Assembly: GCA_965249005.1 (NCBI GenBank)
Contig: CBDFLD010000022.1
Location: 1,040,247-1,104,246 of the forward strand
Reading direction: 5' to 3'
DNA length: 64,000 nt
DNA from: Acidobacteriota bacterium
GTDB taxonomy: Bacteria; Acidobacteriota; UBA6911
Below the pieces are notes generated by a model, which saw only the letters and a list, made by a program, of their open reading frames with translations, ran no database searches and had not been told where the DNA came from. Below are positions 11,981 to 42,637 of this stretch, one piece after another. The position numbers and the translations under genes are program-made. Every line of letters starts with the position of its first letter. Position 1 is the stretch's first letter.

Positions 11981-12041
11981 AGATCCCAATAGTGTAGCAC
12001 GTCTACCTCTCTCTCGGAGGCGCCGCAGAGATCACGTAGGC

Positions 12042-12066
12042 ATAGGCAGCTCACGCCGTGAGCTGC
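12042..12066 (+). repeat. REP-like palindrome
   Basis: ATAGG-CAGCTCACG-C-CGTGAGCTG; same design as 16733-16757. Confidence 0.7.
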
Positions 12067-12170
12067 GTTGCGGAAGTGTAGCCTGCCTTGCCTCACGGCG
12101 GACAGACGGTGTAGGATAAAGGCACGGGAGTACAGGGCTGTTCCCAGTAATCTCTTGTTGGAATCCACAC

Positions 12171-25449: not shown

Positions 25450-25641
25450 CATAAAGCTACATTTGGCCTGATCCGGAGGGAAGGTGCTCTCTGGAAGTGC
25501 CACTTCAAACTGCGTTGTAACGAGCCTCCTGCGTTTTGCTCGGTCGCCTGTCGATCTTGAAGTCACTACTGAAGGCTTAATGGATCCGGAATAACTCTGC
25601 TAGTGCCTTACCCCCCTCGCAGGGGTGTTTGGAGACTCTCA

Positions 25642-27135
25642 ATGACGGAAGGATCCGAAGTACCCACAGACCCCTTGGTGGTTGTTTCGAACCGACTCCC
25701 TTATGACCTTCGCGTCAGCCGAAACGATCCGCCCTACAAGCGAAACGTAGGCGGACTGGTCAATGCCGTCGAACCCGTCCTCAGCCAGGTGGGAGGCCGG
25801 TGGGTGGGCTGGGACGGCTCGTTGGGCCGGTCGGCTGCCGATGTTTCTTCCCGGCTTTTCAATCAAGAATCGTACAAGGCACCAAGCGGCATCGAGATGT
25901 ACGGAGTGCCGCTGAGTGAGCGGGACGTGCAGCACTACTATCACGGCTTCTCGAACCGCGCGCTCTGGCCCCTGTTTCATAGCTTTCCGGAAAAGTCGAT
26001 CTTCGACGCTCAGGACTGGAATGTCTACACGAAGGTGAACCGGCGTTTTGCCGAGGCGTCCCAGCCGCTGGCCTGGCCGCGCGGCCGAATCTGGGTGCAC
26101 GATTTTCACCTCATGCGCGTGCCCTTTTTTCTGCGCGAGCTCGGTTACCGCGGACGAATCGATTTTTTTCTCCACATTCCGTTTCCACCACCCGAGATTT
26201 TTTGTACCTTGCCCTGGCGCAACGAGTTGATCCAGGGGATGCTCTCGGCCGACTCGATAGCGTTCCACGTCAAGGGCTATCACGACAACTTCCTCCGCAC
26301 CGTGACCCACTTGTCCCGGAGTCAAGTGGAGCTGAATACCTCCGTGGACTCGACGACGATCGTCTCGGACCGAGGGAAATCTTCGACCAAGGTGGTGCCC
26401 GTCGGCATCGACGTCGAAGAATTCGAGAAGATTTCCGAGAGGAAATCCGTCGTCGAACACGCCGTTCGGCTCAGAGAGTCCAATCCGGGGCGCCGCATCC
26501 TGATTGGAATCGATCGCCTCGACTACACGAAGGGGATCAAGGAACGCCTGGACGCCGTCGAGCATTTCCTGACGAAAAACCGCGAGGCCCGCGGAAAGAT
26601 CGTGCTGTTTCAGATCGTTGTGCCGAGCCGCCACCAGATCACCGAGTACCGAGAGCTCAAGAAGGAAATCGATCGTCAGGTCGGCCGCATCAATGGCGAT
26701 TTCGGAAGCGAAGGTTGGGTCCCGATTCACTACTGGTATACGGCGCTGGAGCGAGAACAGCTGGTGGCTTACTACCGGGCGGCCGACGTGGCGATCGTGA
26801 CTCCGCTTCGTGACGGGATGAATCTGATCGGAGCGGAATTCGCGGCCTCGAGAGTGGACAACGATGGAGTGCTCCTGATCAGCGAGTTTGCCGGGATCGC
26901 GGAGCATACGCCCGGCGCGATCCGGGTCAATCCTCACGACATTCATGGCTTCTCGAATGCGATTCTCTATGCGCTGCGGATGTCGCGCGAAGAGCGCAGA
27001 GCGCGAATGATACGGCTGCGCGAAAGAGTCCGCGAGAATCCGGTTTCAAAGTGGGGCGAGCGCTGCCTGGAGCACACTCCGGCCCGGGTCGCGGTTCTCG
27101 CCGGACGCACGTACCCGCAGCCCGCGGCGTTCTGA
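25642..27135 (+). CDS. otsA: trehalose-6-phosphate synthase family glycosyltransferase (GT20)
   Basis: [54 protein letters not shown]. Confidence 0.85.
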
Positions 27136-27172: not shown

Positions 27173-28060
27173 CTATTCGGTGATGTCGGCTGACGGCGGA
27201 GGCTTGTGAATCAGATCGTCGAGCTTGACGATCAAGTCGGCCAGCAAGGCGGAGTCTTTTCCTTCCATCAAAGCAACCGCGACATACTTCTTTCCATTTC
27301 GTTCTACGAGCGCCGCGTCCGCGTGCCACTGTTTCCAGGTCCCGGACTTTCGATAAATCTTTGATCCGGGCCGTCGCGCCAGTCCCTTGACGAACTTGTG
27401 CTCGATAGCTGGATGCGACATGATCGTTTTCATCTCCCGACTGATCCAGGAATCGACCAGCACGCCCCGATCCATCATGACGAGGAAGCGGGCGACCTGC
27501 CTCGCCGTGGCACCGTGGGAGATCTGATGCAGCGGGTCGCGCCTCCAGTAACCCAAACCGCCGTAGCCCTTACCGACCCACAGCCCACCGTTTCGCCGAA
27601 CATCATAGAATGCACGCTCGGGATGTGTCAGTCCCTTGGCGATGGTTTCGAAACCGATCAATCCGATGAGATTCGACGCCTCCCGGTTGCTGGAGCTTCG
27701 AATCATGCCGATCAGGGATTGCTTCAACTGGGGTGTGTAGGCGAGGCGTCCCTTGTGGATCTGGTCGAAAACGCCAAGCATGACCGCGATCTTGGGAAGA
27801 CTGGCCGCATAGAGCATCGTGTCGGGATTGGCGGCCGCGAAGCGGGTTTGTCTCTCGCCGATATCGACCAGCGCGACCGACAGCCTTTCCCGGGCGATGA
27901 GAGGCCGGAAACGCTTGTGATCGAGGGCTTTATCCAGAGCTTGCTGCAACTGGAGATTCGACTTGTTCAGCAACAGCGGCTCGGCACGTACCTCACCGCA
28001 AATCAATGAAAAACATGGGGATAGAGCCAAAAGCCCAATGAGCGAGCCAAAGTGTCGCAC
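27173..28060 (-). CDS. secreted serine hydrolase, class A beta-lactamase/PBP fold
   Basis: Signal peptide; SLPK (SxxK), SSN (SxN), KSG. Confidence 0.85.
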   Translation of the reverse strand: MRHFGSLIGLLALSPCFSLICGEVRAEPLLLNKSNLQLQQALDKALDHKRFRPLIARERLSVALVDIGERQTRFAAANPDTMLYAASLPKIAVMLGVFDQIHKGRLAYTPQLKQSLIGMIRSSSNREASNLIGLIGFETIAKGLTHPERAFYDVRRNGGLWVGKGYGGLGYWRRDPLHQISHGATARQVARFLVMMDRGVLVDSWISREMKTIMSHPAIEHKFVKGLARRPGSKIYRKSGTWKQWHADAALVERNGKKYVAVALMEGKDSALLADLIVKLDDLIHKPPPSADITE

Positions 28061-28186
28061 CCTTCCATTATATGGATAACCCTATTTTTACAAAGAAGAA
28101 AATAATGGAGCCGGTGTGCAGGCACGGCGCCGGGCAGAAGCGTAACCCGCACACGCCATGGGCGGCTCGAATGCAGTGCTACCCGT

Positions 28187-29536
28187 CTATTTGGAGATGC
28201 TCTCCTGCCGTCGCTGCACCAGGTGCTCGATCTCCGTCCCGATCTGCATGTGCTCGGCGGCCGAGTTGATCCTCAGCACGTTCGACATCATAGAGAGCAA
28301 ATAGACTCGCATTGGCTCCCCCGGGGTCGCGTTGGGTGATTCCACAATGGCGACAGAGTGCATCAGGTTCTGCGCATTCCCCTTGTATTGCCCGCACTTG
28401 TAGCCCGGCTCCGGCTTGCAGCGATAGAGAGACCCTGATTTGAAGTAGACAGCCGACTTGTTCAGTGCGCCCGCGGCCGCGTAACGATAGCGCCGCCTGG
28501 TGAAGTAGAGCATCTTTTTCATCTCCAGACTGCTCCAGCGGTCGACGAGTTTCCCCTGCTCGAGCCGGACCAACCAGCGAAGTAGTTCCCGGGGAGTCGA
28601 GTAGCTGGATCGGCCCGGAACGATCCGGCTGGCCGTTCGGGTAAAAAAGGTCCGGATGCGCAGTAGTTCCGGGTCGAGCCCTCTGGCGACGAGAGGCTGC
28701 TCGATGACCGCAATGGCGTCGTCCGTCAAGTTCGTCTTCGGAGTTTTGTTGAAGAACTCGTCCTCCTGCTCCTGTGTCACCGGGTAGGCGTCTCCGAACT
28801 GAGCCATCAGCAGGGCGTGCTTCCAAACCACCGAAGCAGCGGCGTTAGAGCTGGGAGATGCCATGTGATCGATCCACTCCCAGAGCGAAAACGTATCCCC
28901 GATGCGAACGGAACGGTGACTCACCGCAGTCATGTCTGAGTTGACCACCGGTACCGAGTGGTGATTCGGCTGGACAAACCGGTCGGCCCTTACCATTGTG
29001 TTTCTCAAGAACTCGGCTCGCGCTTCCGTGCTGTGGGGGAACCGCCGCCGCAACTGCTCAAACACCGCGGTCATGACCAGAAGCTTACCCACTGATCCGG
29101 GAATGTAGCCTTGCTCCGGATTGATGGCAGCATAGCGCGGCGCCTTCGGGTCGGTAATGTCGAGCAGGGCAATCTTGTAGGATGGGTCCAGGCGAGCAAA
29201 AATTCTTTCCAGCCCTCGTTGCAGTGCCGCATCGTGGGCCGTGTCGTTCGTGATGTCGTAATCCGGGTTGCCCTCGGCAAGGCGCAGCTGGATATCTTTG
29301 ATCGAAAGCAAAGCGCCGGGCTGAAGCCGAAAAGTGCCCGCAACACGACCGTCCTGAATCCCCTGGTAAGCCAGGAGCCTGCGAATCTGCGTATAGGTAT
29401 ACCCATCCAACGGATAAGCGAGCAGTGAAGCCACCCCAAGAAAAAGAAACGCCGAGACTAGAAACACGCCGGTGAGACTCGGCGCAGGCTGCCCACGCCG
29501 TGGGCAGCACGCAAACACCCACCGAAGCCAAGTCAT
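28187..29536 (-). CDS. secreted serine hydrolase, beta-lactamase/PBP fold
   Basis: ATGA overlap with the upstream gene at 29533-29536; signal peptide; SVGK, SSN and KSG motifs. Confidence 0.82.
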   Translation of the reverse strand: MTWLRWVFACCPRRGQPAPSLTGVFLVSAFLFLGVASLLAYPLDGYTYTQIRRLLAYQGIQDGRVAGTFRLQPGALLSIKDIQLRLAEGNPDYDITNDTAHDAALQRGLERIFARLDPSYKIALLDITDPKAPRYAAINPEQGYIPGSVGKLLVMTAVFEQLRRRFPHSTEARAEFLRNTMVRADRFVQPNHHSVPVVNSDMTAVSHRSVRIGDTFSLWEWIDHMASPSSNAAASVVWKHALLMAQFGDAYPVTQEQEDEFFNKTPKTNLTDDAIAVIEQPLVARGLDPELLRIRTFFTRTASRIVPGRSSYSTPRELLRWLVRLEQGKLVDRWSSLEMKKMLYFTRRRYRYAAAGALNKSAVYFKSGSLYRCKPEPGYKCGQYKGNAQNLMHSVAIVESPNATPGEPMRVYLLSMMSNVLRINSAAEHMQIGTEIEHLVQRRQESISK

Positions 29537-32484
29537 AAAGGCTCCCGCATATTCACAGCTTCTTCTCCTTTGTCCAATAACTCCTGATCCAAACTCTTGA
29601 GCCGATTCCACGCCGGCCCTTCCCGTTCTGCCACGAAAGGCCGAATCTGAAACAACCAAAGTTTCCCCTCGGCAAAGCCAAACTCGATATCCCAGGTGTG
29701 CTGGGCTTGTTCCTTGCCTTTGCTCCTCCAATCCTTGACCATCTGCCGAAGTTGTTTGATCTCTCCTGTGGTCAAAAGGTAGTCGCTGCGCCGGGTCGTG
29801 GTCCACTTCACGCCGCCACCGTCATCCAGATACCGGCGATAGGGGGCCTTGGCCTGGGCAAGCAACCGAATGCCTCCTGCCGAGTCGAGAAGCAGTGTCT
29901 CCGCGCTCTCTCCTTCGACGCCACCTCCGACGCCTTCGGCGGTCACGATCGTGAGGCGGTCCTTCGATTTCGGCGATCCCGGGGAGTCCATGGAATCCAG
30001 ATCCGCGGTGATCATGACGCCCGATTTTTCCGAGTGGACACTCTGGAGCAGTAACACCGACGTATAGACGTCCCCCGGGTTTTCGATGAACTGCTTTCTC
30101 CAAGCATAGGCTCGGTCGCTCAGGGGCGACGCCCAGACTTTCTTGATTGCCTCCAAAATGCTCTCCTCGGTGACCCGATGGGCAACCGTAAGATTCAAAC
30201 CCGCTCCCGAGAACTCCTCTAGATCCTCGGCATTGGTATCGCTGCGGATGAAAACCCCTTTGGCCACATTCGCGCCCAAGACGTTCCGAATAGACCGCAG
30301 GACGCCGGCTTTCATTTCAGGAATCCACTCCAGTTTCACGACGGCCCGGCGAAAGCTCTCGAGTCGAGGCAGCATGTAATCGTCTATTTCCGATTCGCTC
30401 TGTCGGGCCAGGCGCATGTCCTCCGCCGTGCGACATGCCTGCTGGATCTGTTCATGCAGTGTTTGCCCAGAAGAATACGGTCTGTCGATATGGGCCCGGT
30501 ACATGCCGAAGGGAAGCGCGAGCCCCGGCGCTACCTTGTCGGGAAAGGATGTGTAGAGCTCCCCGAGATTGGCTGCCTTCGGGCCGACCAGCACCCCCGA
30601 ATCCGATGCCCGCAGATCATACAAGGATACGGGAGTTACCGCCGCGTGCTGCAAGCGCTCGGTGTCGAGCCGGATTCTTTTGCCTCGAAGCTCCTTTTCC
30701 TGCTCGATGAGCATAGCATCGGGTTCAGTCATACGAGAGGCGGCCTTGAGGGTCACCAGGCCCATGGGCGACACCGCAAAGAGGATCTCCTTGCCCTCGT
30801 GTTTTTTCAACGAAGGGAGCAGGGAAGTGGACAGGGCGGCGTTTGGAATGGAAAGATTTCGAGCGAGGAGCTGAGCGTGCGACAGCAGGTTTCCCAGGTC
30901 CAGCGTCAAGATTCCCGCCATGGGCTTCAGATCGGAGATCGTGCCCGGAATGACGTAGATCGTGCCCGGATCAGGCTTCCAGTGGTGTTGTTGCCCGGAC
31001 ACGATTTCCAGCTTGGCCTTGACCGCGCCTGAGTTGAGGCCTCGGATTCCCTGGGCTACCCGGCGGCCAAAGACGGAGTGAGATTGCGCCAATTGCCGGT
31101 CGGCATCCTGGGAGAGCTTCCCCAGTTCCGTGGAAAGTAGCAACAAGGTCGAGCTCCGCAAGAGCTCGTCAAAAAAGCCCAAGGCTTTGGGCTCGACGCG
31201 AGCGTATCGCTCTTGGGAGCTGCCAAAGATCGCCCTGGCCGAAGTCGAGGCCCACTCGACACTCCGGCCGAGGTAATCGAGAGCGTTTCTATACTCGAGA
31301 GCCGGAATGCTCACCCGCTTGGCCAGTTTGCCGCTTTCGATCCCGAGCGCTTCGCGCTCGCGCTCCGATAGAAACCCGGTCGAGAACGCGAAGTCGAAAT
31401 AATCTTCGAGGCCGCGCAATCGCTCCGACCGGCTCCACTGAACCCGCGATTGCTCCAGATCTTCGCGCATTGTCTGCGCTTTCTCGCTGAGCAGGGCAAT
31501 CAGATCCATGGCGAGGAGATTTGTTGCGCCATCCGATCCCTCCGCTACCGACCGCCTCAATTTCGCAGCCAGTCGTGCCATGCGCGAAAAAAGTATGGAG
31601 GATTCGGCATCGAGCGAGTCTGCAAGGCCGGCGATTTCGATTGCAAACCGCGGCAACTTCTTCTCGAACGATCCCAACGCTACCTGGATTCGTCGTGGAT
31701 CATATTGGCGCTCCAGTTCTGCGTAAAGATCCGCCACCTTTGCCAAGGCATCCTCGGCCAGATTCGCGCGCTCCCGATAAACGGCGACCGCGTCGATGTC
31801 GGCCGGCGCGGGATAGGAGTGAATCTTGCTGCGCAGCGGTTGAAAGCCTTCCTCCAGTTCCGCAATCTCGGTTGCCAGTGTGCGGATCTTTGTTGTTGTC
31901 GGTCGATCCAGCCGGTCGTGAGACAAGGTGCGGGTCAGATGAATCGCCAGCAGAAAATTCTTACGCGTCCAGACACGGTCGCCGAGCAACTCCGCGAGAA
32001 ATGCCTGGCCCTGCCGCTCCTCGTCTTCTATTTGCCGCGAGCCGCGATAGAACTTTGCCCTCCGGAAGATCCATCCATCGTCGACCGCGTAAAGATAGTG
32101 GGCGACAACCCACGATTTCGCCCGATGGTAGTTCTTTCCTGAATCCAGGAACACGTCCAGGGAGATATTGGTCAGAACCGAGTTCAAGTACAGATACATC
32201 GACTCCATCCGCTGTGCCACTTCAGTGAGCTCTGCATGCTGCACGCCCCCTCCTCGCTCCTTGCACGGCGTCCCGGCCGGCGGATGGACGGTTCCGTCCT
32301 CGCAGTACCAGCGCAACCGCTGGTAGGGCCCTTTGGGGTTCTTTTTCATCCCGGCAATGGCGTTTCGAGCCTCTTCGATTTGAGCATCTGTTAGAGGCTC
32401 CGGTGGCCCCTGAGCAAGAGCGGAATCGAACAGAAACGAAAAGAGCAGAAAAAATGCGACCGGTGTGATCGGGGGAACTTTCAT
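29533..32484 (-). CDS. secreted PEP-synthase/PPDK-like dikinase (phospho-His domain plus C-terminal ATP-grasp)
   Basis: Signal peptide ending ALA; GNLLSHAQLLARN; VGPKAANLGEL, RSDTNAEDLEEFSGAG, DIEFGF and LFQIRP. Confidence 0.85.
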   Translation of the reverse strand: MKVPPITPVAFFLLFSFLFDSALAQGPPEPLTDAQIEEARNAIAGMKKNPKGPYQRLRWYCEDGTVHPPAGTPCKERGGGVQHAELTEVAQRMESMYLYLNSVLTNISLDVFLDSGKNYHRAKSWVVAHYLYAVDDGWIFRRAKFYRGSRQIEDEERQGQAFLAELLGDRVWTRKNFLLAIHLTRTLSHDRLDRPTTTKIRTLATEIAELEEGFQPLRSKIHSYPAPADIDAVAVYRERANLAEDALAKVADLYAELERQYDPRRIQVALGSFEKKLPRFAIEIAGLADSLDAESSILFSRMARLAAKLRRSVAEGSDGATNLLAMDLIALLSEKAQTMREDLEQSRVQWSRSERLRGLEDYFDFAFSTGFLSEREREALGIESGKLAKRVSIPALEYRNALDYLGRSVEWASTSARAIFGSSQERYARVEPKALGFFDELLRSSTLLLLSTELGKLSQDADRQLAQSHSVFGRRVAQGIRGLNSGAVKAKLEIVSGQQHHWKPDPGTIYVIPGTISDLKPMAGILTLDLGNLLSHAQLLARNLSIPNAALSTSLLPSLKKHEGKEILFAVSPMGLVTLKAASRMTEPDAMLIEQEKELRGKRIRLDTERLQHAAVTPVSLYDLRASDSGVLVGPKAANLGELYTSFPDKVAPGLALPFGMYRAHIDRPYSSGQTLHEQIQQACRTAEDMRLARQSESEIDDYMLPRLESFRRAVVKLEWIPEMKAGVLRSIRNVLGANVAKGVFIRSDTNAEDLEEFSGAGLNLTVAHRVTEESILEAIKKVWASPLSDRAYAWRKQFIENPGDVYTSVLLLQSVHSEKSGVMITADLDSMDSPGSPKSKDRLTIVTAEGVGGGVEGESAETLLLDSAGGIRLLAQAKAPYRRYLDDGGGVKWTTTRRSDYLLTTGEIKQLRQMVKDWRSKGKEQAQHTWDIEFGFAEGKLWLFQIRPFVAEREGPAWNRLKSLDQELLDKGEEAVNMREPL

Positions 32485-32536: not shown

Positions 32537-34197
32537 CCCGGATTTCCAATTTGAATGAAATATAGCAACCTTTCAGGCGCCTTCGGCATCCCTATTTATA
32601 AGCGTCGGAGAATGATAAGGACACATTGGAGGGCAACACCCGATGGGTGAAAAAGAACGAAAGGCGTTTCAACTCAGCTTTAACGGATTACTCAAAGTTG
32701 ATTTTCAGGGATCGCGAGTCACCTCCGAGGGTGGCCTGATTCTGGTCCGCGAGTTGGACGAACGGCTGGGGATGGGACGACTCATAGACGAGCATCTCAA
32801 CGACACGCGGCAAGGCTTGAACAAACAGTTCCCGCTCGTCGATCTGCTGCGGCAATCGGTCTATAGTCGCCTGGCAGGCTACGAAGACCTTAACGATGCC
32901 GCGCGGGTCTCAGTTGATCCGACCTTTCGCTTGATCGGCTCGAAGAAAAACTGGGATCGCGGTGCGGCGCTGACCTCGACGTTACACTGGTTCGAGACGG
33001 AGCTGCTGACGCGAGAAGAGAATCTGATCGGGCTGATGGCTCTGAACCGAGAGACACTCGCACAGGCCGAGGCTCTGGACAAGTCTGATCGCGTAGTGTT
33101 GGATATGGACTCAAGCGAGAGTCCGGTGCATGGTCAGCAGGAAGGCAGCGCCTACAATGGCCACTTCGAGTCCGTGTGTTACCATCCGCTGTTTCTGTTC
33201 AATAGTCACGGGGACTGTCTGGCGGCCAAGCTGCGGCCGGGTAACGTGCATAGCGCCGAGGACTGGGACGAGCTTCTGTTGCCGGAGATCGATTTTCAAC
33301 AGGAGCAAGGCAAAGAGATCGTCTTTCGAGCAGACGCCGCCTTCGCCAAGCCAGAGGTTTACGAGACCCTGGAAGAGCGCGGCGTTCAGTATGCCATACG
33401 CATCCCGTCCAACAAGAGCCTGGAGTGGGAGATTGCCGACATCCTGTTTCGTCCTCCAGGTCGGCCCAGCCGCAAGCCACTGGTGCGCTACAAGAGCTTC
33501 CGCTATCAGGCCGAAAGCTGGTCGAGGCCGCGACGGATCGTCGCCAAGGTCGAGCATCACCAGGGCGAGTTGTTCCCGCGGGTCGGGTTCATTGTCACGA
33601 ACATGAGCTTGCCGAGCCGCTCGGTGGTGAGGTTCTACAACAAGCGCGGCACGGCGGAGCAATGGATCAAAGAAGGCAAGCAGGCGACGCATTGGACGCG
33701 GCTGTCCTGCCATCGCTTCCGTGCGAATGAAGTGCGCCTGCAGTTGAGCGTGCTCGCCTACAACCTAGGCAACCTATGGCGGCGACTCGGGCTACCACCC
33801 CGGATCAAGAGCTGGTCGCTCACGAGCTTGCAGCACCGGTTGATGAAGACTGGCGGAAGGCTGGTCAAGCACGCGCGGTACTACTGGTTGCTCTTGGCCG
33901 AGGGGCATCTGGACCGTCGGTTGTTTGGTGAAATGCTCAGGCGGATCTGGGCCTTGCCGCTGCCAAGCGGTTAGCCGCCCGGCTTGCAAGTCCGGAATTG
34001 GAATGCCATGGAAGGAGTGTGGCGATGTGTCTGGAAAATCGCCCACGCAGGAGTGAGAAGGTCTACTACCACGGCGACAACGGGTCATTGGGATGCGTTG
34101 ACTGGATCCATGGTTGGTCTGAGGCCGGGATTTTCTTGCTCCCATGGTGGCTCGAGACTATTATGTTGGGAACCGAGATCCAAATTGGAAATTCCGG
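32537..34197 (+). mobile_element. IS1380-family insertion sequence (1661 bp)
   Basis: 17 bp terminal inverted repeats CCCGGATTTCCAATTTG / CAAATTGGAAATTCCGG (2 mismatches) around the transposase; no flanking direct repeat seen. Confidence 0.9.
32643..33974 (+). CDS. IS1380-family DDE transposase
   Basis: VTSEGGL, GYEDLND, LDMDSS, LRPGNVHSA, RADAAF, YNKRGTAEQWIKEGK, FRANEVRL. Confidence 0.95.
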   Translation: MGEKERKAFQLSFNGLLKVDFQGSRVTSEGGLILVRELDERLGMGRLIDEHLNDTRQGLNKQFPLVDLLRQSVYSRLAGYEDLNDAARVSVDPTFRLIGSKKNWDRGAALTSTLHWFETELLTREENLIGLMALNRETLAQAEALDKSDRVVLDMDSSESPVHGQQEGSAYNGHFESVCYHPLFLFNSHGDCLAAKLRPGNVHSAEDWDELLLPEIDFQQEQGKEIVFRADAAFAKPEVYETLEERGVQYAIRIPSNKSLEWEIADILFRPPGRPSRKPLVRYKSFRYQAESWSRPRRIVAKVEHHQGELFPRVGFIVTNMSLPSRSVVRFYNKRGTAEQWIKEGKQATHWTRLSCHRFRANEVRLQLSVLAYNLGNLWRRLGLPPRIKSWSLTSLQHRLMKTGGRLVKHARYYWLLLAEGHLDRRLFGEMLRRIWALPLPSG

Positions 34198-34338: not shown

Positions 34339-34584
34339 AGCTGAGATGCACTACCGGCCTTCGCCAGGATCTGACGTACCCGGCGCGGGGTGACGCCAGC
34401 CAGTTTGCCGATCTCGCGGGTGGAGACGCCTTCACTGATCCGTCAGGGCCAGCACGAGCTTGCGACGCGTCTCATAGAAGTGCGTATTGGCCGGGACCCA
34501 CAGCAGGCCCGTGAAGTGTTGCTGGACCTCGCTGAACAGATCCGGCGGCAGCACATCCTTGGCGTTGGCATATCGACGGTTCAC
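34314..34584 (-). pseudogene. small Mor/CD3324-like HTH regulator, interrupted
   Basis: GTG start overlaps the upstream stop; MNRRYANAKDVLPPDLFSEVQQHFTGLLWVP...LTDQ, then TGAA and a frame change to GVSTREIGKLAGVTPRRVRQIL. Confidence 0.7.
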
Positions 34585-35378
34585 GGTTTGCTGGTCTTTT
34601 TCTTGATCCATGGTTGATCCACGTCGGGGTTGTAAAAGCGCAGACGGTTTTCATTAGGCGGCGGACCGACGATCTCGATGGACTGCCGGGTCACCTCGCC
34701 GATGCGCTTTCTCTCGTCCAGGAAACACACAAGGCCATAGTCCTCGCCACAGGGAAAACGGAATCGTCCCCGGTTCTGGTAAAGCCGAGCCTCACTCCAT
34801 CCTAGGGATAGCGCCTGGTCTCGGATGGCATCGACCTGGGGCACGGCTGAGGACCGAACTCGCTGGATAAACCGCCAGTCGCCGTCTTCGGGGAAAAGAT
34901 ACGGTGGGACGGCCGGCGTCTCCTTCACTGGAGGGCGCACACGATCAGATCGGCCATCAAACGCATCGATCCGAGGCGGTGCATAGGTCTTGGGGTCGAG
35001 CGACTGGACGGCCGCACAGAGCGCCTCGTCTCCCAAGTGCTCGATGGCCCAGGCGTGAATCTCGTTGAACCGGGTGCGTAGCATATCGAAGGCCTGGGCC
35101 GAGAGACGTCCTGAGCCCACTCTCTTCTTGGCCAGGTCCATCCGGTGCCGCAGCCAGGCGTAGTAGTCCGGATCGAGCCGGCGAAAACAGGTCCCGTCGA
35201 TCCCGACGTCCCGAGCGAAGTGATGGGGCTTGTCCGTTTCCCAGGATTTCAGGTTGGTGGCTGCATAGAGCACGGTTTCCCGCTTGCTCGATTCCTTGGC
35301 GGGGGCGTCGTCCTTCCTGATCGGGATCGGGTCATCGTCCCCCGCTTTTTGTCTCTCGAGTATTGTTAGAAGGCTCAC
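34581..35378 (-). CDS. hypothetical element protein
   Basis: GGAGA RBS and GTG at 35378 downstream of promoter copy 3; coding-like composition (RRLDPDYYAW, LGWSEARLYQ). Confidence 0.7.
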   Translation of the reverse strand: MSLLTILERQKAGDDDPIPIRKDDAPAKESSKRETVLYAATNLKSWETDKPHHFARDVGIDGTCFRRLDPDYYAWLRHRMDLAKKRVGSGRLSAQAFDMLRTRFNEIHAWAIEHLGDEALCAAVQSLDPKTYAPPRIDAFDGRSDRVRPPVKETPAVPPYLFPEDGDWRFIQRVRSSAVPQVDAIRDQALSLGWSEARLYQNRGRFRFPCGEDYGLVCFLDERKRIGEVTRQSIEIVGPPPNENRLRFYNPDVDQPWIKKKTSKP

Positions 35379-35413
35379 GTGCGGCTCTCCGGTTGACAGT
35401 CTTCCCAAGGAGA

Positions 35414-35441
35414 TACTTACCGGAGCGAACCGCAAAGTGCC
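35414..35441 (-). promoter_or_regulatory. putative element-specific ECF sigma promoter, copy 3
   Basis: GGCAC-TTTGCGGTTCGCT-CCGGTAAGTA. Confidence 0.7.
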
Positions 35442-35945
35442 GGATGGTGAACGGGTAAATGATCCCGTTGGACCCTCTGGAACCTCCAATCATCCCCTCT
35501 CACGAGCGGAACTGATTGAATTCATTGAGGGTTGGTTATGATTGCCGAGGCGTAGTAGAAAAACGACCTCTGCAGCAGCAGGCCTCTCTTGGCGCCGACA
35601 GAAATCCCTCAAATGCCTGCTGTGGATCGCACTAGAGGAGGAAACTTTCTGAAGCCCCTTCACCACAACCACCTAAGCCCTTGATTTCACTTAGGTAAAT
35701 GTGGTATACAGTACGCCATCCAAGGATCTGGTGACAGGGTCTGCCAGCAGGCTCACGGGGCTGTTGAGCGGGACCACCCAAGGGCGTCGTGATGGGATGG
35801 TGTCCTTTTGCGCGTCTGCAGCTGATCGTCTCTTCCTGACCATTACGGGGTAGCGAACCTCGCGCAAGCGTAGGTTGGAAGGATCGATAGCTGAGCCAGA
35901 TTCGGACCGCCGACTGTACTGACAGATCGCCTGAAGGAGTAGCTG

Positions 35946-36773
35946 ATGCGTGTCGGGCTACAGAAATTCTTCGGCAGAGCTCTGTATCGGGCCGTCAAGC
36001 GCTGCTCGAGCCGACCGAGAACGTCGCCCGGTCCCTCTTTGTCACTGCTCCGAGACCTGTTGATCATCAAGATCTGCCTCTGGGCCGGCGCGGACCCGAA
36101 CGTGAAAGTTAACCAGAAGATCGGCATTTTCGGCAATACGACCGATAAAGGGAGAACAGCGTTGCATGAGGCGGCCTGCAACGTCTATGTCACTCATGAG
36201 ATCATCCAGCCGTTGCTGGCCGTCGGTGCGAATCCAAACGATAGGGATTCGGTCGGAGACTCGCCTCTCCATCTCCTGATCAAGAATGCCGCCCCGAGTT
36301 GGTTCCAAGGATACACCAACAGCCTCAGAGAATTGTTGGCGGCGGGCGCCGATCCCAACGCCCGCAATGCTTCCGGGGAGACTCCCTTACACCGGGTGCG
36401 AAACGGTTACGATGTCGAGTTGTTGGCAAGGGCCGGCGCCGACCCGAACGTGGCCAGTCCGTCCGGGGACACCCCGCTGCATCACGCGGCGCGCCGTGGA
36501 AAATCGATGGTTGTCCGGGCGCTGATGGTCGCCCGTGCAGATCCCACGGCCGAGAACAACGACGGGGCCACGCCGGCGGACTTGGCTGCCCAAGCAAAAT
36601 TGAAAGAGAGGGTACTTGAAAACCTCCTCGCGCAACTGCACCCGTCCGGCGGTCCTCGAAGTCAAAAAGAGAGGGCACGAGAGTCCGCACTCCGATCCGG
36701 AAAGGTTGTCCCCATCAAGCCGAGTCTATCCGCCCGGCTGCAGAGCCGGACCAAAAGCGTGAAAGAAAGCTGA
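35946..36773 (+). CDS. ankyrin-repeat protein
   Basis: GRTALHEAA, GDSPLHL, GETPLH, GDTPLHHAA and GA(N/D)PN repeats; start uncertain. Confidence 0.88.
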   Translation: MRVGLQKFFGRALYRAVKRCSSRPRTSPGPSLSLLRDLLIIKICLWAGADPNVKVNQKIGIFGNTTDKGRTALHEAACNVYVTHEIIQPLLAVGANPNDRDSVGDSPLHLLIKNAAPSWFQGYTNSLRELLAAGADPNARNASGETPLHRVRNGYDVELLARAGADPNVASPSGDTPLHHAARRGKSMVVRALMVARADPTAENNDGATPADLAAQAKLKERVLENLLAQLHPSGGPRSQKERARESALRSGKVVPIKPSLSARLQSRTKSVKES

Positions 36774-36879: not shown

Positions 36880-37183
36880 GCCGAAAGCGCCGAAGGTACC
36901 TTCGGCGCTTGGTTCTTCTCTTATATCTTATTATTTATCAATAATTTAGAGATAGATAGAGATAAGAAACGCCGAAGGCGCCGAAGGGTTTTGGAAAATA
37001 TTACTCCTCGTGTGAGCCGAAAAAAAGGGTGGTCCGGTCCTACCCCAGGAAGATCTCTTCCAGTACCTTTTTTATTTTTTTACTCTAAGGGGGGGGTGGA
37101 CTCTCAAAACCTTCGGCACCTTCGGCGCTTTGGGTTTAACACTATTATTTTCAGCCAGTTGTAGCGTCGAAGGTACCTTCGGC
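36880..37183. repeat. origin-like cluster of GCCGAAGG repeats with AT-rich spacers
   Basis: 26 bp perfect palindrome at 36885-36910; direct pair at 36971-36987; inverted pair at 37110-37126; palindrome at 37168-37183; AT-rich tract at 36913-36969. Confidence 0.75.
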
Positions 37184-37258
37184 AAAAGCACCCCAGAGCA
37201 CAAAAAAGACCGCCTGCCGTTGGCAAACGGGCCATCGGGGAGGTTGGGGAGGTTCTAG

Positions 37259-39948
37259 CTAGGTCACTCGGTTTGGTGGATCGAATAGAGCTTCGTGCCG
37301 TGGCGGTTCTGAGGACTCGCCGAAGCAGTCGCTGCCCTGGTTGGCGATATCGAAGTTGATCACAAAGGTCCGCGACTGGATCTCGGAAAGCTCTCCCATC
37401 AGCGGCTCGATGCCGGTGGTGTTGAGCAAACACTTGGTGCGCTCGATGACGGTCTCGGTATCGGTGCCGCTCTTGCGCTTCTCCTTGGCGATCCCGGTGA
37501 GGCTGGTCAGCATGAAGGTGGTGAGGTCTTCGGTCATCTGGCGGGCTTCGATGTTGTCGAGCACGATGAGCGGGTTCTGTGAGCCGTCGGTGTAGTTTGG
37601 CGGCGTCGGTGGCCTTCTTGTGCTGGGGCTCGCCGTAAATGAGCGCCGAGATGAGTTTGCTGGCGATTGTCTTACCCGAGCCGGCGAGACCTTCGAAACG
37701 GGTCATGGGCCGGGTGCCGGTGAAATCGATCAGTAGGAAGCAGGACAGCCAGGAAATAATGAGAGCACGGTCCTGCTGGGAACAAGCGATGTTGTCGACC
37801 AGTATTTCCTCCAGCTTGCGGTCGGCTTCTTCCAGATCGGCATCGGCGAGGAACTGAAGGGGTTTCATCTTCCGGGAGCCTTCGAGGATGATCTTGTTGG
37901 CATTGCCGCCGTTTTTAAGAACCTCGATGCCATCGGGCGTGATCTTGACGATCTCTTGTGCGTCGTTGTTGAGGTTGAAGTAGACCGTTTGGTTGGGAAC
38001 GTCGGTGTGTAGCCACGAGAAGTGGTCCTGCATCTCCCCGTGGATCAGGGCCAAGCTGGACAGCACTTCGAAGAAGATGCGCCCGCTGCCCGTGGGCGGC
38101 ACCAGACCGGTCTGTTTGTAGAGCATGGCCGAGTACTGGCGTTTGCGCCCCCGGTCGGCCGAATCCATCCAGTAGATGGTGTTGTCGAAGTAAACAAACG
38201 GTTCGCCGTGGCGGGTGTAGAAGAACTGCGCGGCGCCGTGATCCGTGAACCACTGGTAGGCAGCCTCGGCGACCAGGGTGTAGTCGGGGGCCTGCCCGTC
38301 CGGGGTCTCCAACAACACCTCATTGATCCGGGCTCGGCAGGAGCCGGCTGGCGCATTGGTGAGATGTTTCTTGCGGATATTCTGGCTATGTTTTTCTTGC
38401 CGGGCTTGTTCCTTGAGCTCCTTTTTCACGGCCCGCACCTGCTGGCGCAGCGTGGTGAGCGACAGGCTCGACTTCCCGAAACGCTCCTGGATGCGCTTCA
38501 GGTGACGGTTTTGCTCCAGCGGCGACAGCAACGCCACCTCATTCAGGATCGGCTCGAGCTGCTGGTTGCGGGCTGATTCGGCGACATCGGTGGGCAGCCG
38601 GTCGATGCCGAATTCAAGCGGTGTCGTGGCCTCGCCGAGTAGCGTTTCGAACTCCGTGGCCGTGTGGCCGGAGGCAAAGTAGTCGTTGACATCGATCTTG
38701 GCCGCAGCGAGCAGACCTTCGGCTTCCTCCATGTCTTCGGAGCCCCGACCGTTGAGGTGATCGGGGAGATCTCCCGCTCCGACAGCCGCATCCAGATCGA
38801 AGCGTTCCCGTAACTCGCGCCGGGCTTGTTGCTGGGTCTCATCCAGAGGCAGAACGACCAGTTTCGTTTCGATCTTGTGCCCGGTGAGGACGCTTGCAGT
38901 CTTGAGCGCGCCGTTCAAGCCCACCTGAGAGACTTCGTTGTCCTGGCAGATGTAAACCGTCTTTATGCCCTGGAGCTTGGGCAACAGGCGACTCCAGTCT
39001 GATTCTCGGATGTGCACCGTGACCGGGGAGACGACGGGGAAGCCGCGCTCCATCAGAGCGATGCAGTCGGTGACGCCCTCGGTGATGATGACGCGATCGG
39101 GCCGGGTGAGCAGGCAGTCTTCGTTATAGAGGTGGCTGTTGTTGATCGAGGGCGCGATGTAGTGGTTCTTGCGGTCGTTGTGGACCCGAAGCTTCTTGTA
39201 TTTGCCCCGCTCATACTCGTTGTCGGGCGTCCAGGGCGTCTGGCGTCCGATCATGAATACGACGCGGCCACGGCTCCAGTAGGGGAAGATGATGCGCCGA
39301 TGAGATATTGTCAAATGTTGTGGATGGGTCCTTTCGTTTGGTCAGGGCGGAGAGGACGCCACGGTATTCTGTTCCGTTGTCTTGGCAGGCGCCGTTGGTG
39401 GCAAAGCCGATTTGGAGGGAATCGATGGTCTCGTCTGAGATCCCGTAGTGGGCATGCAGCCACTCCAAGACTTTGGGCGACTCCTTTAGCCGCCGGTGGT
39501 AGAACGCCGCCAGTTCCGTCAGCGCTTCCTGGACCCGCACCTCCAGCTTCCGCTCCGCCTCGATCTTCTGCAGTTGCTCGGGGGAAAGTCCGTACTGACC
39601 GAGCGGCGGCAAAGAGACCTTGGCGGCCAGATAGTCGCGGGCCCGCTTGTGGGTCTCGGGCATGGGACCGGATCGCCCGGCGGTGACGGTCCTGGATTGG
39701 ATGAACTCGACCAGCTGTAGCACGTCGCCCCCCTTGCGGCAGGCATGGCAAAAGAAGCCTTGCTTGTCGAGCCAGACGTGAAGCGAGAGGCGGCTCGTGC
39801 TCTTGTGGTGGGGGCAATCGCATTGCAGGAGGCCGTTGGTTTCGGCCGTGATGCGGGGACCGAGGAGCTCGCGAGCCACCTGACCGATGTCGACCTCGGT
39901 GATCTGCCGGTAGTATTCCTGGACGTTGCCCGGTGGTGTATTGCTCAT
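37259..39948 (-). pseudogene. DNA primase-helicase (zinc finger, TOPRIM, P-loop), multiply frameshifted and truncated
   Basis: CPHH...CHAC zinc finger; IITEGVTD and QDNE TOPRIM; GLAGSGKT; frame breaks at ~39310 and 37596-37598. Confidence 0.85.
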
Positions 39949-42149: not shown

Positions 42150-42637
42150 TGGGTCGATGCGATTCGATGTGTTCTTCGCAAATAGCCTTCGACAAACGTC
42201 CGGGCCCCCTGGCGGTCGGAGCAAAAAAAGACCGGGGTACGGAAGTCGACGACGATGGACAAAACGGCTCCAAGCACGGCGTTGGGATGGGCTCCGGAGC
42301 GATACCGCTCAGCCAGGATGTCGGCGAGGTTGGCCTCGACCACGATGCAGGCGGCCTTGAAATCTGCGAGCCGCTTGAGCTCCCTTCGGAACCGTTTCCG
42401 GGAACGAATGACAGTCGAGACCAGGTCCTCGAGGGTCTTGCGTTCCACCGCCACCTGGTGCTCCCATCCATCGAGGGAGTAGTCCCCGGCGGGCAGGGCC
42501 CGGCGCGTGGCCGTCACGCCTTCCGAATCGAAGGTGTAGGGCTCCTGTTCCCGCGTGTCGACAACGACCGTGATCCGATCTGTTCCTGCCTGCCGCTCAG
42601 GACCCGGCGCAAGCCGGTTAGAACGGGGCGAGCGCAT
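42131..42637 (-). CDS. ERCC4-domain nuclease
   Basis: VDTREQ, GDYS and VERKTLEDL motifs; start uncertain. Confidence 0.88.
   Translation of the reverse strand: MRSPRSNRLAPGPERQAGTDRITVVVDTREQEPYTFDSEGVTATRRALPAGDYSLDGWEHQVAVERKTLEDLVSTVIRSRKRFRRELKRLADFKAACIVVEANLADILAERYRSGAHPNAVLGAVLSIVVDFRTPVFFCSDRQGARTFVEGYLRRTHRIASTQWQPQP

Follow-up and report, generated by a model that had tools for sequence, protein, structure and literature searches.

Gene content of the locus

The window, a stretch of 64,000 nucleotides from an Acidobacteriota genome, carries a gene for a dikinase-like protein followed on the same strand by two genes for putative serine enzymes, BL449 and BL295, with an insertion sequence (IS) on the opposite side of the dikinase gene (Table 1). 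The true ATG of BL449, at 29536, shares sequence with the stop codon of the dikinase gene (ATGA), so that an earlier, sequence-only reading was right in describing a SxxK/SxN/KSG protein coupled in this manner, with a second one after it.

Table 1. Features of the dikinase locus, in window coordinates.
Feature	Position	Strand	Basis
Dikinase-like gene, 983 aa, ATG start	29533..32484	-	ORF list, translation, Pfam, full-length family
Predicted Sec signal peptide, residues 1-24 (MKVPPITPVAFFLLFSFLFDSALA, cleavage before QG)	32413..32484	-	Heuristic
N-domain, residues 25-495	31000..32412	-	Invariant columns, AF2 model
Swivel phospho-histidine domain, residues 496-620	30625..30999	-	8a8e alignment, PF00391 in homologues
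Catalytic H536 codon	30877-30879	-	Translation and homologue alignment
ATP-grasp nucleotide-binding domain (PPDK_N), residues 632-955	29620..30591	-	Pfam E 1e-27
BL449, putatively exported PBP-A/class-A-beta-lactamase-fold serine enzyme, 449 aa	28187..29536	-	Pfam, alignment, AF2, Foldseek
BL295, second putatively exported serine enzyme, 295 aa, GTG start	27173..28060	-	Pfam, alignment, hhalign
Insertion sequence, 52 bp upstream of dikinase start	32537..34197	+	Pfam, inverted repeats
IS inverted repeats, 20 nt, flanking the DDE transposase	32537-32556 and 34178-34197		
DDE transposase	32643-33974	+	Pfam DDE_Tnp_1_4, E 6.8e-117

Domain anatomy of the dikinase-like protein

The protein consists of a predicted Sec-type signal peptide, an N-domain of ~470 aa, a swivel phospho-His domain and a C-terminal ATP-grasp, beyond which only 28 residues remain. 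PPDK_N was the sole Pfam match (E 1e-27). The ATP-grasp (residues 631-956) is homologous to residues 18-365 of PEP synthase (PDB 8a8e, profile E 1.8e-37), and the His region (512-550) aligned with residues 419-456 of the same chain, placing GNLLSHAQLLARNLSI, which contains H536, against its TSHAAIVSRELGIP phospho-His motif; both share the SH(A/V)xxxAR pattern. In 26 diverse homologues (31-88 % identity), H536 was invariant without exception, whereas its absence would have refuted the earlier reading, and the surrounding GNLLSHxQLLARNLGIPN motif was entirely invariant or almost so. The PEP-utilizers mobile domain (PF00391) was detected in 21 of these 26 sequences, and the PEP-utilizers_C barrel in none of them. 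Across the same alignment, K636, R747, D932, E934, Q946 and R948 of the ATP-grasp were invariant and aligned to the GGKGANLG, VRSSATAEDL, DIEW and QSRP motifs of 8a8e, which we take to be ATP-binding in PPDK and PEP synthase. Thus, the described arrangement of a phospho-His motif followed by ATP-grasp, with no pyruvate-binding barrel, holds throughout.

An ordinary PEP synthase was considered and rejected, in line with the initial assignment: NCBIfam PEP-synthase equivalogs scored at most 82 bits against cut-offs of 598-1063, and, in contrast to PEP synthase and PPDK, the protein has the reverse domain order, no PEP/pyruvate TIM barrel, and a predicted signal peptide. The order of substrate domain, His domain and ATP-grasp had been likened to that of plant dikinases, and it indeed corresponds to potato GWD1 minus its CBM45 modules. 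According to PMC13553574, StGWD1 comprises a central domain (483-926), a His domain (931-1050, with H992) and an ATP-binding domain (1069-1387), and the central domain is likewise described as having no clear PDB equivalent. The catalytic core of GWD1 and phosphoglucan water dikinase thus has the same order: a central domain of ~440 aa made entirely of helices is joined by a short link to the His domain, which precedes a C-terminal ATP-binding domain. By analogy we presume that the His-swivel mechanism is the same. Unlike plant GWD, however, the dikinase and its homologues lack CBM45 or CBM20 modules in Pfam searches, the protein is bacterial and has a Sec signal where the plant enzymes are targeted to plastids, its partner genes differ, and Pfam GWD1_pHisD was matched in just one of the 26 homologues (E 0.0078).

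The N-domain begins with a small beta sub-domain containing the invariant C61 and C74, followed by ~20 helices, and its invariant residues include R147, E153, E155, R201, R218, H222 and D229. Its AF2 model (pLDDT 89.6, pTM 0.88) is mostly helical, agreeing with the helical domain of ~470 aa originally noticed, and had no convincing fold match in a PDB library reaching to April 2026, which the GWD central-domain entries 9HA9 and 9QVI, named in the August 2026 paper PMC13553574, perhaps postdate; the N-domain profile likewise had no sequence link to any PDB chain. We presume that it is the acceptor-binding domain. Matches to the profile were confined to proteins of ~960-1050 aa with the dikinase architecture, or shorter pieces thereof, such that the family displays one architecture throughout; it forms 809 N-domain clusters at 50 % identity, and 580 dikinase stretches were confirmed by tblastn in the species-genome collection. 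We found no published work on this family, which we judge to be a distinct, new kind of His-swivel dikinase in a setting, outside the cytoplasm, that is new for these enzymes; the gene set is widespread among bacteria yet unstudied.

Export signals

Signal peptides were called with our own heuristic on the N-terminal sequence. By this measure the N-termini of the dikinase and BL449 (hydrophobic stretch ending in LLA, then YP) are Sec-like, and that of BL295 is signal-like as well. A 10-aa window of hydrophobicity of at least 2.0 ahead of the conserved mature start was present in 85 of 95 full-length dikinase homologues, whereas an internal segment used as control contained one in 18 of 95, so that the signal peptide claimed for the dikinase recurs, heuristically, across its homologues. 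Moreover, the mature protein contains exactly two Cys, the invariant C61/C74, in 64 of the 95. The dikinase and both partners therefore appear to be exported.

It is very unlikely, in our estimate, that the dikinase is instead a cytoplasmic enzyme of an ordinary metabolite, with the hydrophobic stretch serving as a membrane anchor or stemming from a mis-called start. The cytoplasm is ATP-rich, export of the dikinase is itself deduced, and ten of the 95 homologues fell under the hydrophobicity threshold; however, in our reading the listed ones appear to stem from start calls that are truncated or shifted, and the N-domain constantly starts 30-65 residues into the protein. Further points against a cytoplasmic enzyme are that, in the window protein, Lys precedes the hydrophobic core and an acidic segment follows it; that few Cys occur besides the invariant pair; and that the co-inherited partners have signal peptides of their own and a beta-lactamase/PBP fold that, to our knowledge, is known solely from secreted or periplasmic enzymes.

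Two PBP-A-like serine enzymes

Both partners matched Beta-lactamase2 in Pfam (E 2.9e-8 for BL449 and 5.6e-14 for BL295) and are paralogues according to hhalign (probability 98.7 %, E 3.6e-16). SxxK, SxN and KSG correspond to S148/K151, S229/N231 and K366-G368 in BL449, and to S87/K90, S123/N125 and K238-G240 in BL295; these motifs were invariant in 68 aligned BL449 and 47 aligned BL295 homologues, as in PBP-A and class A beta-lactamases (SxxK, SxN, K(S/T)G), and BL449 possesses its own invariant Cys pair (C373/C381). While BL449 had no sequence-level PDB match, its AF2 model (pLDDT 92) gave PBP-A 2j7v as the best Foldseek hit (E 1.8e-9, TM about 0.72-0.76 on target), together with the beta-lactamases CTX-M, Toho-1 and LRA-5, and the BL295 profile matched the same PBP-A, Tll2115 from Thermosynechococcus (E 6.6e-4). 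In contrast to these relatives, with which they share 10-16 % identity, the BL proteins are always paired with the dikinase, and BL449 has a ~100-aa N-terminal extension, an inserted beta-hairpin region and a Cys-bridged loop.

Gene linkage and distribution

Of the 68 loci that have 1300 bp or more of sequence beyond the dikinase gene, 59 have BL449 immediately 3' of it on the same strand, eight have BL449 elsewhere in the locus, and one lacks it; where 3500 bp or more follow the gene, BL295 was found in 47 of 55 loci. The three-gene linkage extends over Acidobacteriota, Gemmatimonadota, Gamma- and Betaproteobacteria, Desulfobacterales, Myxococcaceae and Mariprofundus. In the cultured Agaribacterium haliotis, for instance, BL295, dikinase, BL449 and an NTT gene form a tight same-strand cluster with ends overlapping or near-touching. 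Among 41 relatives, the dikinase occurs in three (intact in G000 and G032, in pieces in G006), BL449 in precisely G000 and G032, and BL295 in these two, on a different contig in G032; G006 also has a weak BL295 fragment. The three genes co-occur strictly in this set, and the linkage on which the earlier reading had staked its case persists across several phyla. Since the module is patchy, with three carriers in 41 and one decayed copy, it is accessory.

Such coupling could also reflect a relay directed at proteins, in which BL449 and/or BL295 would dock onto the helical N-domain and have their activity switched through phosphorylation by H536. The ATGA coupling, the near-obligate adjacency and the strict co-occurrence fit a physical partnership, and the predicted mostly helical build is common for protein-docking domains; PTS Enzyme I, for example, docks HPr through a helical sub-domain. 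Nevertheless, we regard this as unlikely, given that homologue alignments of BL449 and BL295 revealed no phospho-acceptor motif beyond the hydrolase triads, that BL295 is unlinked in some genomes such as G032, and that BL449 sits several kb away on the opposite strand in some loci (L013, L014, L049 and L055).

Distinctly unlikely, in our view, is a resistance island for periplasmic inactivation of xenobiotics or antibiotics, in which the dikinase would phosphorylate a drug or phenolic and the BL enzymes would hydrolyse beta-lactam-like compounds. Rifampin phosphotransferase (RPH) and the Bacillus phenolic phosphate synthetase, which phosphorylate a hydroxyl, likewise combine ATP-grasp, swivel His and a separate, largely helical acceptor domain, and the dikinase ATP-grasp aligned with RPH chains 5hv1, 5hv2 and 5fbs (profile versus PDB, E ~1e-24). 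The beta-lactamases among the structural neighbours of BL449, the patchy distribution and the adjoining IS also suit this idea. However, those enzymes are cytoplasmic with the order ATP-grasp, acceptor domain, His; the structure matches listed for the N-domain model include none of their chains; and RPH equivalogs scored 45 bits (NF041857, cut-off 999) and 25 bits (cut-off 1700). Furthermore, both BL enzymes are structurally nearest to PBP-A, of DD-peptidase type, and the three genes are strictly inherited together by environmental bacteria from at least six phyla or classes, which argues for a single pathway with a common substrate and against two separate resistance genes.

Linked transporters and a proposed phosphotransfer module

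The periplasm is generally considered ATP-poor. ATP present there could, in addition, leak via porins, which speaks against an ATP-dependent periplasmic enzyme. A candidate answer to where such ATP could come from is provided by NTT/TLC homologues, found in 48 of 80 dikinase loci and in 23 of the 30 whose flanks both extend 6 kb or more, consistently within ~2.5 kb of the dikinase gene ends; the other seven long-flank loci had none within 8 kb. PF03219 (TLC) scored above cut-off in ten of 58 flanking proteins scanned, from eight of 14 loci. The linked transporters fall into three subtypes of just 19-25 % mutual identity and three arrangements (upstream on the same strand, downstream, divergent). 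Like the antiporters of Chlamydia, Rickettsia and plastids, they appear to be related to the solved ADP,ATP carriers, to which their profile aligned over the full length (9j3n, E 9.6e-32; 9j3j, E 2.1e-23); the similarity to characterised ATP/ADP exchangers is remote, with TIGR00769 scores of 31-67 bits where the cut-off is 387. Unlike those antiporters, they are very divergent, belong to free-living diderms, would carry ATP outward, and are unlinked in the window: tblastn detected no NTT gene at its dikinase locus. Another contig (C18) of the same genome encodes an NTT-HEAT with an adjacent cNMP-binding gene, the same pair that stands beside the dikinase in L003 and that resembles the NTT-HEAT(-cNBD) fusions of free-living bacteria; the arrangement is described by Major et al. 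2017 (PMC5381601). NTT-like genes occur in 29 of the 41 relatives regardless of the dikinase, with at most eight matches per genome, and the transporter family is therefore not module-specific. Within the module of L049 lies a gene of the e(P4) 5'-nucleotidase family (TIGR01533, 202 bits, cut-off 216), and the corresponding ORF cluster is present in seven of 80 dikinase loci.

These neighbours could alternatively serve a reverse salvage, in which NTT would import nucleotides and the dikinase would form ATP from AMP and a phosphorylated donor freed by the hydrolases. PPDK-type reactions are reversible, and genes for e(P4)-type nucleotidase and other phosphoesterases lie near some dikinase loci. 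Nonetheless, we consider this highly improbable, as we know of no plausible high-energy extracellular phosphate donor and Pfam searches, including the 26 homologues, gave the dikinase neither a barrel nor another donor-binding domain of known type. In its favour, all functionally characterised NTTs are importers according to PMC5381601.

We favour, with moderate confidence, a conserved, uncharacterised extracytoplasmic phosphotransfer module with an exported dikinase and two serine enzymes as its core and, in most species, an NTT-based ATP supply. The extracytoplasmic system first proposed for this locus is thus supported by export-like N-termini, conserved linkage and dissimilarity to PEP synthase, a reading that rests on sequence. 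After Sec export of the dikinase and formation of a C61-C74 disulfide, the C-terminal ATP-grasp would bind ATP, the beta-phosphate of which would go to H536 and the gamma-phosphate to water or phosphate, leaving AMP; the His domain would then swing to the family-specific N-domain and hand its phosphate to the bound acceptor. BL449 and BL295, as acyl-serine enzymes, would act on the substrate or product of the dikinase. In most species, the adjacent inner-membrane NTT/TLC exchanger would supply ATP (ATP out, AMP/ADP in), and in some an e(P4)-type periplasmic 5'-nucleotidase may clear AMP. The domain build, the invariant catalytic residues, the conserved export-type N-termini, the linkage and the co-occurrence are observed directly in the sequences, whereas export itself, periplasmic ATP as donor, what the transporter carries and in which direction, and a non-protein acceptor are all inferred; our leading guess for the acceptor is a cell-envelope (peptidoglycan-derived) peptide or glycan.

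The upstream insertion sequence

Given that the IS lies just 5' of the dikinase start codon, expression of the gene in the genome of the window is uncertain. Short-read contigs stop at 32561, and depth rises from ~3.5 to ~100 inside the IS. In the closest clade (L003, L006, L008 and L070), the position of the IS is held by a divergent NTT-HEAT gene.

Domain architecture of the dikinase

The only Pfam family matched in the dikinase was PPDK_N (PF01326; residues 632-955, 97.7 bits versus a cut-off of 27), which was present in all 26 aligned homologues. In sequence comparison with PDB chains, the ATP-grasp domain (631-956) pairs with residues 18-365 of the PEP synthase chain 8a8e, and a weaker second segment (512-550, GNLLSHAQLLARNLSIPNA) pairs with the phospho-His motif of the same chain, residues 419-456. 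Because these two segments align to 8a8e in inverted order, the His domain of the dikinase lies N-terminal of its ATP-grasp. Only 28 residues remain C-terminal of the ATP-grasp, without a barrel domain. PF00391 (PEP-utilizers) was seen in 21 of the 26 homologues, the window's own dikinase being without a match at E<=0.01, and GWD1_pHisD in one of them; Pfam returned no families beyond PF00391, PPDK_N and GWD1_pHisD in this set.

An ordinary PEP synthase was rejected as an identity for this protein. PpsA is arranged as ATP-grasp, His domain and a C-terminal PEP/pyruvate-binding TIM barrel, whereas the dikinase reverses the first two, the PEP-utilizers_C barrel is absent from 26/26 homologues in Pfam, and the best equivalog reaches only 82.5 bits versus a cut-off of 883. 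More generally, the NCBIfam equivalogs for PEP synthase, rifampin phosphotransferase and PigC/RedH match the ATP-grasp only, at 21-82.5 bits versus cut-offs of 501-1700. Rifampin phosphotransferase was rejected as well (NF041857, 45 bits versus 999; NF000283, 25 bits versus 1700), as its rifampin-binding domain sits between the ATP-grasp and the His domain, an order differing from that of the dikinase.

According to PMC13553574, potato GWD1 (StGWD1) carries two CBM45 modules, and a 4-residue loop precedes its His domain at 931-1050 (H992) and ATP-binding domain at 1069-1387. The succession of a helical central domain, a His domain and a C-terminal ATP-binding domain in that map is common to GWD and the dikinase, which thus matches the GWD catalytic core in the order and sizes of its domains. 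The sequence-only reading had proposed just this glucan-water-dikinase-like order of N-domain, phospho-His and ATP-grasp, without a pyruvate barrel and distinct from an ordinary PEP synthase, and on each of these points it was borne out. In contrast, the starch-binding modules CBM45 and CBM20 that characterize GWD and phosphoglucan water dikinase were found by Pfam neither in the dikinase nor in its 26 homologues.

In the His-swivel dikinase superfamily, the His is autophosphorylated from the beta-phosphate of ATP. Judged by its PPDK_N ATP-grasp and PEP-utilizers mobile domain, the protein belongs to this known mechanistic superfamily. In the alignment of 26 members (31-88% identity), H536 is invariant (26/26) within G-N-L-L-S-H-x-Q-L-L-A-R-N-L-G-I-P-N, so that the His is retained as had been anticipated, and K636, R747, D749-N751, E753-L755, G760-N764, D932, E934, Q946, R948 and P949 are likewise invariant in the ATP-grasp. 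To judge from these residues, the His-swivel catalytic apparatus is intact and strongly constrained.

Family size and the N-domain

A word-indexed search, in which 8000 candidates were scored, returned 101 proteins at E<=0.001, mostly of 955-1005 aa and with at least 90% query coverage. Their source names are "hypothetical protein" or "PEP/pyruvate-binding domain-containing protein", and one, from Guyparkeria hydrothermalis, is called "phosphoenolpyruvate synthase". Among one-genome-per-species contigs, at least 592 stretches carry two signature peptides, at least 580 of them confirmed by tblastn. Eighty loci were kept, from Acidobacteriota, Gemmatimonadota, Gamma- and Betaproteobacteria, Desulfobacterales, Myxococcaceae and Mariprofundus.

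Among 1.84 billion cluster representatives, the N-domain profile matched 809 proteins at E<=0.001, of which 387 reach E<=1e-30. Within the best 150 of the 809, the match begins at residue 23-88 of a protein of ~920-1050 aa, the remainder being shorter pieces of such a protein or starting inside the N-domain, and none of these 150 listed matches has an extra domain N-terminal of it. The listed matches thus show a single architecture. Residues 45-500 were modelled with AF2 from an alignment of 58 sequences (pLDDT 89.6, pTM 0.88); the model shows a small beta sub-domain followed by ~20 helices. Against PDB sequences, the profile found no chain below E 0.037. The fold libraries end in April 2026 and may lack 9HA9 and 9QVI, the entries for the GWD central domain named in PMC13553574 (August 2026).

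The invariant residues of the N-domain (n=26) are W59, C61, D63, C74, G137-W138, Y146-R147-G148, Q151, E153, E155, R201, R218, H222 and D229. The Arg/Glu/His/Asp set among them (R147, E153, E155, R201, R218, H222, D229) appears to resemble the acceptor-hydroxyl residues that PMC13553574 describes for GWD, rifampin phosphotransferase and phenolic phosphate synthetase. In the reading favoured here, the N-domain would bind the acceptor.

The two PBP-like proteins and their linkage to the dikinase

The dikinase gene is followed by genes for two proteins, BL449 and BL295 (table below), which hhalign relates with a probability of 98.7% (E 3.6e-16, 27% identity) and which, on this similarity, are paralogues. 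SxxK, SxN and KSG are invariant in 68 aligned BL449 and 47 aligned BL295 sequences, and both proteins are therefore probably active acyl-serine enzymes. The ATGA overlap and the two SxxK/SxN/KSG proteins that the sequence-only reading had placed after the dikinase were confirmed.

Features at the module and immediately upstream of it in the window
Feature	Position	Strand	Description
Dikinase	29533-32484	(-)	983 aa
BL449	28187-29536	(-)	449 aa; ATG overlaps dikinase stop as ATGA; Pfam Beta-lactamase2
BL295	27173-28060	(-)	295 aa; 126 bp past BL449; Pfam Beta-lactamase2 (PF13354)
IS element	32537-34197		20-nt inverted repeats 32537-32556 and 34178-34197; DDE_Tnp_1_4 transposase 32643-33974

No sequence-level PDB relative was found for BL449. 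Its AF2 model (pLDDT 92) best matches the Thermosynechococcus PBP-A 2j7v (E 1.8e-9, TM 0.72 on target), followed by the class A beta-lactamases CTX-M, Toho-1 and LRA-5, with identities of 10-16%. The BL295 profile matches PBP-A with E 6.6e-4, and the assignment of BL295 to the PBP-A/class A beta-lactamase fold is tied to BL449 by the hhalign probability and PF13354. What makes a true beta-lactamase is the Omega-loop general base Glu166. The beta-lactamase matches, ranking behind PBP-A, bear on the reading that the three proteins form a periplasmic drug-inactivation set, which we regard as quite unlikely. Phosphate might alternatively be passed in a protein-directed relay onto the BL proteins themselves, a reading that fits their pairing with the dikinase and that we hold to be unlikely; the predicted complex of the N-domain with mature BL449 (score 0.00, mark 0.32) counts neither for nor against binding.

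The predicted three-gene linkage was found to be conserved. In the 68 of 80 loci that extend 1300 bp or more past the dikinase, BL449 lies directly downstream on the same strand in 59, elsewhere in the locus in eight and is missing in one (L050). One of these eight (L006) is in effect adjacent, as its BL449 begins 51 bp before the end of the dikinase ORF. Among the 12 shorter loci, the beginning of BL449 is visible in nine, three being too short. Where the locus reaches 3500 bp or more beyond the dikinase (55 loci), BL295 occurs in 47 and is missing in the other eight; 29 copies directly follow BL449 (22 convergent, 7 co-directional), 4 directly follow the dikinase and 14 lie elsewhere.

The same picture emerged from 41 genomes of the window's family and class, a count that includes the unpublished G034, which lacks all three genes. 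The dikinase is present in three of them, namely the window's own genome (G000), G032 and, as three broken pieces, G006; BL449 in exactly G000 and G032; and BL295 in G000 and, on a different contig, in G032, with a weak fragment of it in G006. In the latter, a same-family relative, the dikinase lies in three out-of-frame pieces (G006:C35; L088:7002-9935), BL449 is missing and the BL295 fragment is located elsewhere, and the three genes seem to be decaying jointly. The module is an accessory one of patchy distribution, passed on and lost as one unit.

Other neighbours were set aside. The GT20 trehalose-6-phosphate synthase gene (25603-27135, +), convergent with BL295, was left out of the module because it is linked in 0/80 loci, and the other recurring ORF clusters in the 80 loci were rejected as antisense shadows of four real genes by coordinate comparison. 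Phosphoesterase-type neighbours occur in single loci, namely a BLH_phosphatase-like (L059:7507-7917), a calcineurin-like Metallophos (L013:4861-5865) and a NUDIX protein (L059:13906-14616). In one MAG assigned to Gemmatimonadales, BL295 is directly followed by genes for an ECF-type sigma factor (Sigma70_r2/r4) and a zf-HC2 anti-sigma factor (L003:13108-15140), which hints at envelope-stress control in that lineage; the pair was not recurrent in the ORF clustering of the loci. Rfam detected in eight loci (142 kb) only a tRNA and a distant c-di-GMP-I-GGC riboswitch (L027:18194-18268; 60.2 bits, cut-off 59), ~7 kb downstream of the module and non-adjacent to it.

Export signals

A variable hydrophobic segment opens all 26 aligned dikinases ahead of the conserved mature start. 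We applied a heuristic to 95 full-length homologues, requiring a 10-residue window with a mean Kyte-Doolittle value of at least 2.0 ahead of the conserved "RGPY/F" anchor. By this heuristic, the window was present in 85/95 homologues, compared with 18/95 for an internal control segment, which agrees with the signal peptides claimed by the sequence-only reading. Lys/Arg precedes the hydrophobic window in 85/95 and a small-x-small motif follows it in 90/95, all three features being combined in 76/95. Most of the 19 homologues missing some feature seem, in our reading, to have shifted start calls. In 64 of the 95 mature dikinases, the invariant C61/C74 are the sole cysteines, and BL449 has an invariant pair of its own (C373/C381). 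These features suggest that the dikinase would be exported, and BL449 and BL295 likewise carry predicted export signals. A cytoplasmic enzyme, for which the ten homologues without the hydrophobic window might be cited, is very unlikely.

Recurrent association with NTT-type transporters

Pfam searches of 58 flanking proteins identified 10 proteins above the cut-off for TLC (ATP/ADP transporter, PF03219; 28-77 bits versus 21) in 8 of 14 loci, some of them as fusions with HEAT repeats or with a STAS domain; three further linked homologues had no Pfam match at E<=1e-4. BLAST with the TLC proteins and these three homologues found NTT homologues in 49 of 80 loci (48 if the alignment must span at least 150 aa) and in 23 of the 30 loci whose flanks both extend 6 kb or more. 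Linked copies always lie within ~2.5 kb of the ends of the dikinase gene; by our own arithmetic, chance placement within ±8 kb would amount to ~2% (1-4 NTT copies, genomes of 2.9-4.9 Mb). Seven long-flank loci lack an NTT, and in the genomes searched for five of these, homologues exist elsewhere (5/5); in L029 and L069, an NTT pair lies ~8-11 kb upstream, just outside the fetched stretch and presumably on the same contig.

The linked transporters fall into three subtypes, of ~430 aa, ~460-530 aa and, with HEAT repeats, 720-930 aa, with mutual identities of 19-25%. Their placement varies with lineage: Betaproteobacteria carry the NTT gene immediately ahead of the dikinase in the same orientation, Desulfobacterales and many Gammaproteobacteria have it past the BL genes, and in Gemmatimonadota and Acidobacteriota it lies upstream in divergent orientation. 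In Agaribacterium haliotis (L022), BL295 (6932-7915), dikinase (7947-10871), BL449 (10864-12360) and NTT (12357-13748) form a tight same-strand four-gene cluster. The transporter profile matches the ADP,ATP carrier 9j3n over its whole membrane domain (E 9.6e-32; positions 11-429 versus chain residues 18-507) and the chloroplast NTT1 9j3j (E 2.1e-23). The label of a canonical ATP/ADP exchanger was rejected, as the linked transporters score 31-67 bits versus a cut-off of 387 for the NCBIfam NTP/NDP exchanger TIGR00769.

NTT-like genes occur in 29 of the 41 genomes of the window's lineage (28/40 without the unpublished G034), with or without the dikinase. The relatives G001-G040 have up to 8 NTT/TLC-like matches per genome, many with HEAT repeats and far commoner than the dikinase, and some clustered in twos or threes (e.g. 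G019:C27:322883-333054). The family clearly has wider roles than the module. Major et al. 2017 (PMC5381601) describe NTTs as widespread in free-living bacteria, among them NTT-HEAT fusions with a cNMP-binding gene behind them, and state that every functionally characterised NTT is from a parasite or organelle; the words "export" and "periplasm" are absent from that text.

A possible energized periplasm

Three proteins with export signals are co-inherited, and a nucleotide-carrier homologue is repeatedly recruited beside them. The most economical reading of these sequence patterns would be an ATP-dependent phosphorylation in the periplasm, its ATP supplied through an NTT-type exchanger, a scheme in which we infer what kind of molecule is phosphorylated, which way the transporter runs and that the dikinase is exported. 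Tentatively, and as a possibility that we rate below even, we propose that free-living diderms energize the periplasm in this way, NTT/TLC-mediated ATP export driving a secreted dikinase, and an envelope substrate being handled by the two PBP-A-like enzymes, which would act on the same molecule as the dikinase. In its boldest version, the dikinase would form an acyl phosphate for PBP-like acyl transfer from a free peptide carboxylate, e.g. that of a trimmed peptidoglycan stem; if true, this would amount to ATP-powered cross-linking or repair outside the cytoplasm. An e(P4)-family 5'-nucleotidase gene lies within the module of one locus (L049; TIGR01533, 202 bits versus a cut-off of 216), and its ORF cluster occurs in 7 of 80 loci. 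The opposite direction of transport, serving nucleotide salvage, we deem highly improbable.

To our knowledge, the periplasm is regarded as ATP-free, and envelope enzymes are thought to be limited to pre-activated substrates or the proton-motive force. This view would be challenged directly by a conserved, putatively exported enzyme of the ATP-grasp/phospho-His type with a recurrent link to a homologue of ATP/ADP carriers. ATP export would also offer a testable function for the NTTs of free-living bacteria, uncharacterised according to Major et al. 2017 (PMC5381601). Furthermore, the GWD catalytic core gains a bacterial counterpart, and a new acceptor-binding domain (as proposed here) and two new PBP-like enzyme families are defined; Agaribacterium haliotis and Guyparkeria hydrothermalis are cultured hosts for experiments. 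PMC open-access and bioRxiv full text yielded no publication on the dikinase family, nor any on NTTs as suppliers of ATP to the periplasm. Relative to that literature, the predicted extracytoplasmic setting and candidate acceptor domain have no described counterpart, and the apparently obligate pairing with two PBP-like families and the recurrent NTT link seem likewise new.

The window's own locus and its surroundings

No NTT homologue was found within the 64-kb window. Instead, an IS element, 52 bp upstream of the dikinase ATG, occupies the site of the divergent NTT-HEAT gene of the nearest clade (L003, L006, L008, L070). In public short-read assemblies (contigs from four runs), the flanking contig breaks off at 32561, at the IS element, and the summed contig depth is ~100 or more inside it versus ~3.5 for the dikinase gene, so the element is multi-copy in that sample. 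The window's genome (8.18 Mb, 98.5% complete) contains, by protein search, a single NTT-HEAT gene on another contig (C18:87671-90280; L087:9669-12428), which matches the L003 protein with E 2e-66. After it come genes for a cNMP-binding protein, a PAS histidine kinase and a response regulator. Since NTT-like genes are common regardless of the dikinase, this copy is not specific evidence for the module. Topoisomerase VI A/B genes lie upstream of it, and a secreted-type nucleotide pyrophosphatase/phosphodiesterase (Phosphodiest) is encoded 3 kb downstream (L087 = G000:C18:78000-97000).

Rfam found no RNA family within the window, and a promoter and terminator scan gave nothing clearly above shuffles (4 versus 2.1±1.3 and 13 versus 7.2±3.0). 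Beyond the IS element lie genes for an ankyrin-repeat protein (275 aa; 35946-36773, +) and a RecD2-type helicase (39945-42224, -), as well as two ORFs without a clear Pfam family (34581-35489 and 37104-39314, the second with one weak Toprim_3 match), and the region upstream of the IS element may be mobile DNA. Farther away, a 1762-aa ORF (55901-61189, -) encodes five Big_12 Ig-like domains and a Calx-beta domain and coincides with a stretch of strongly negative GC skew (-0.22 to -0.27).
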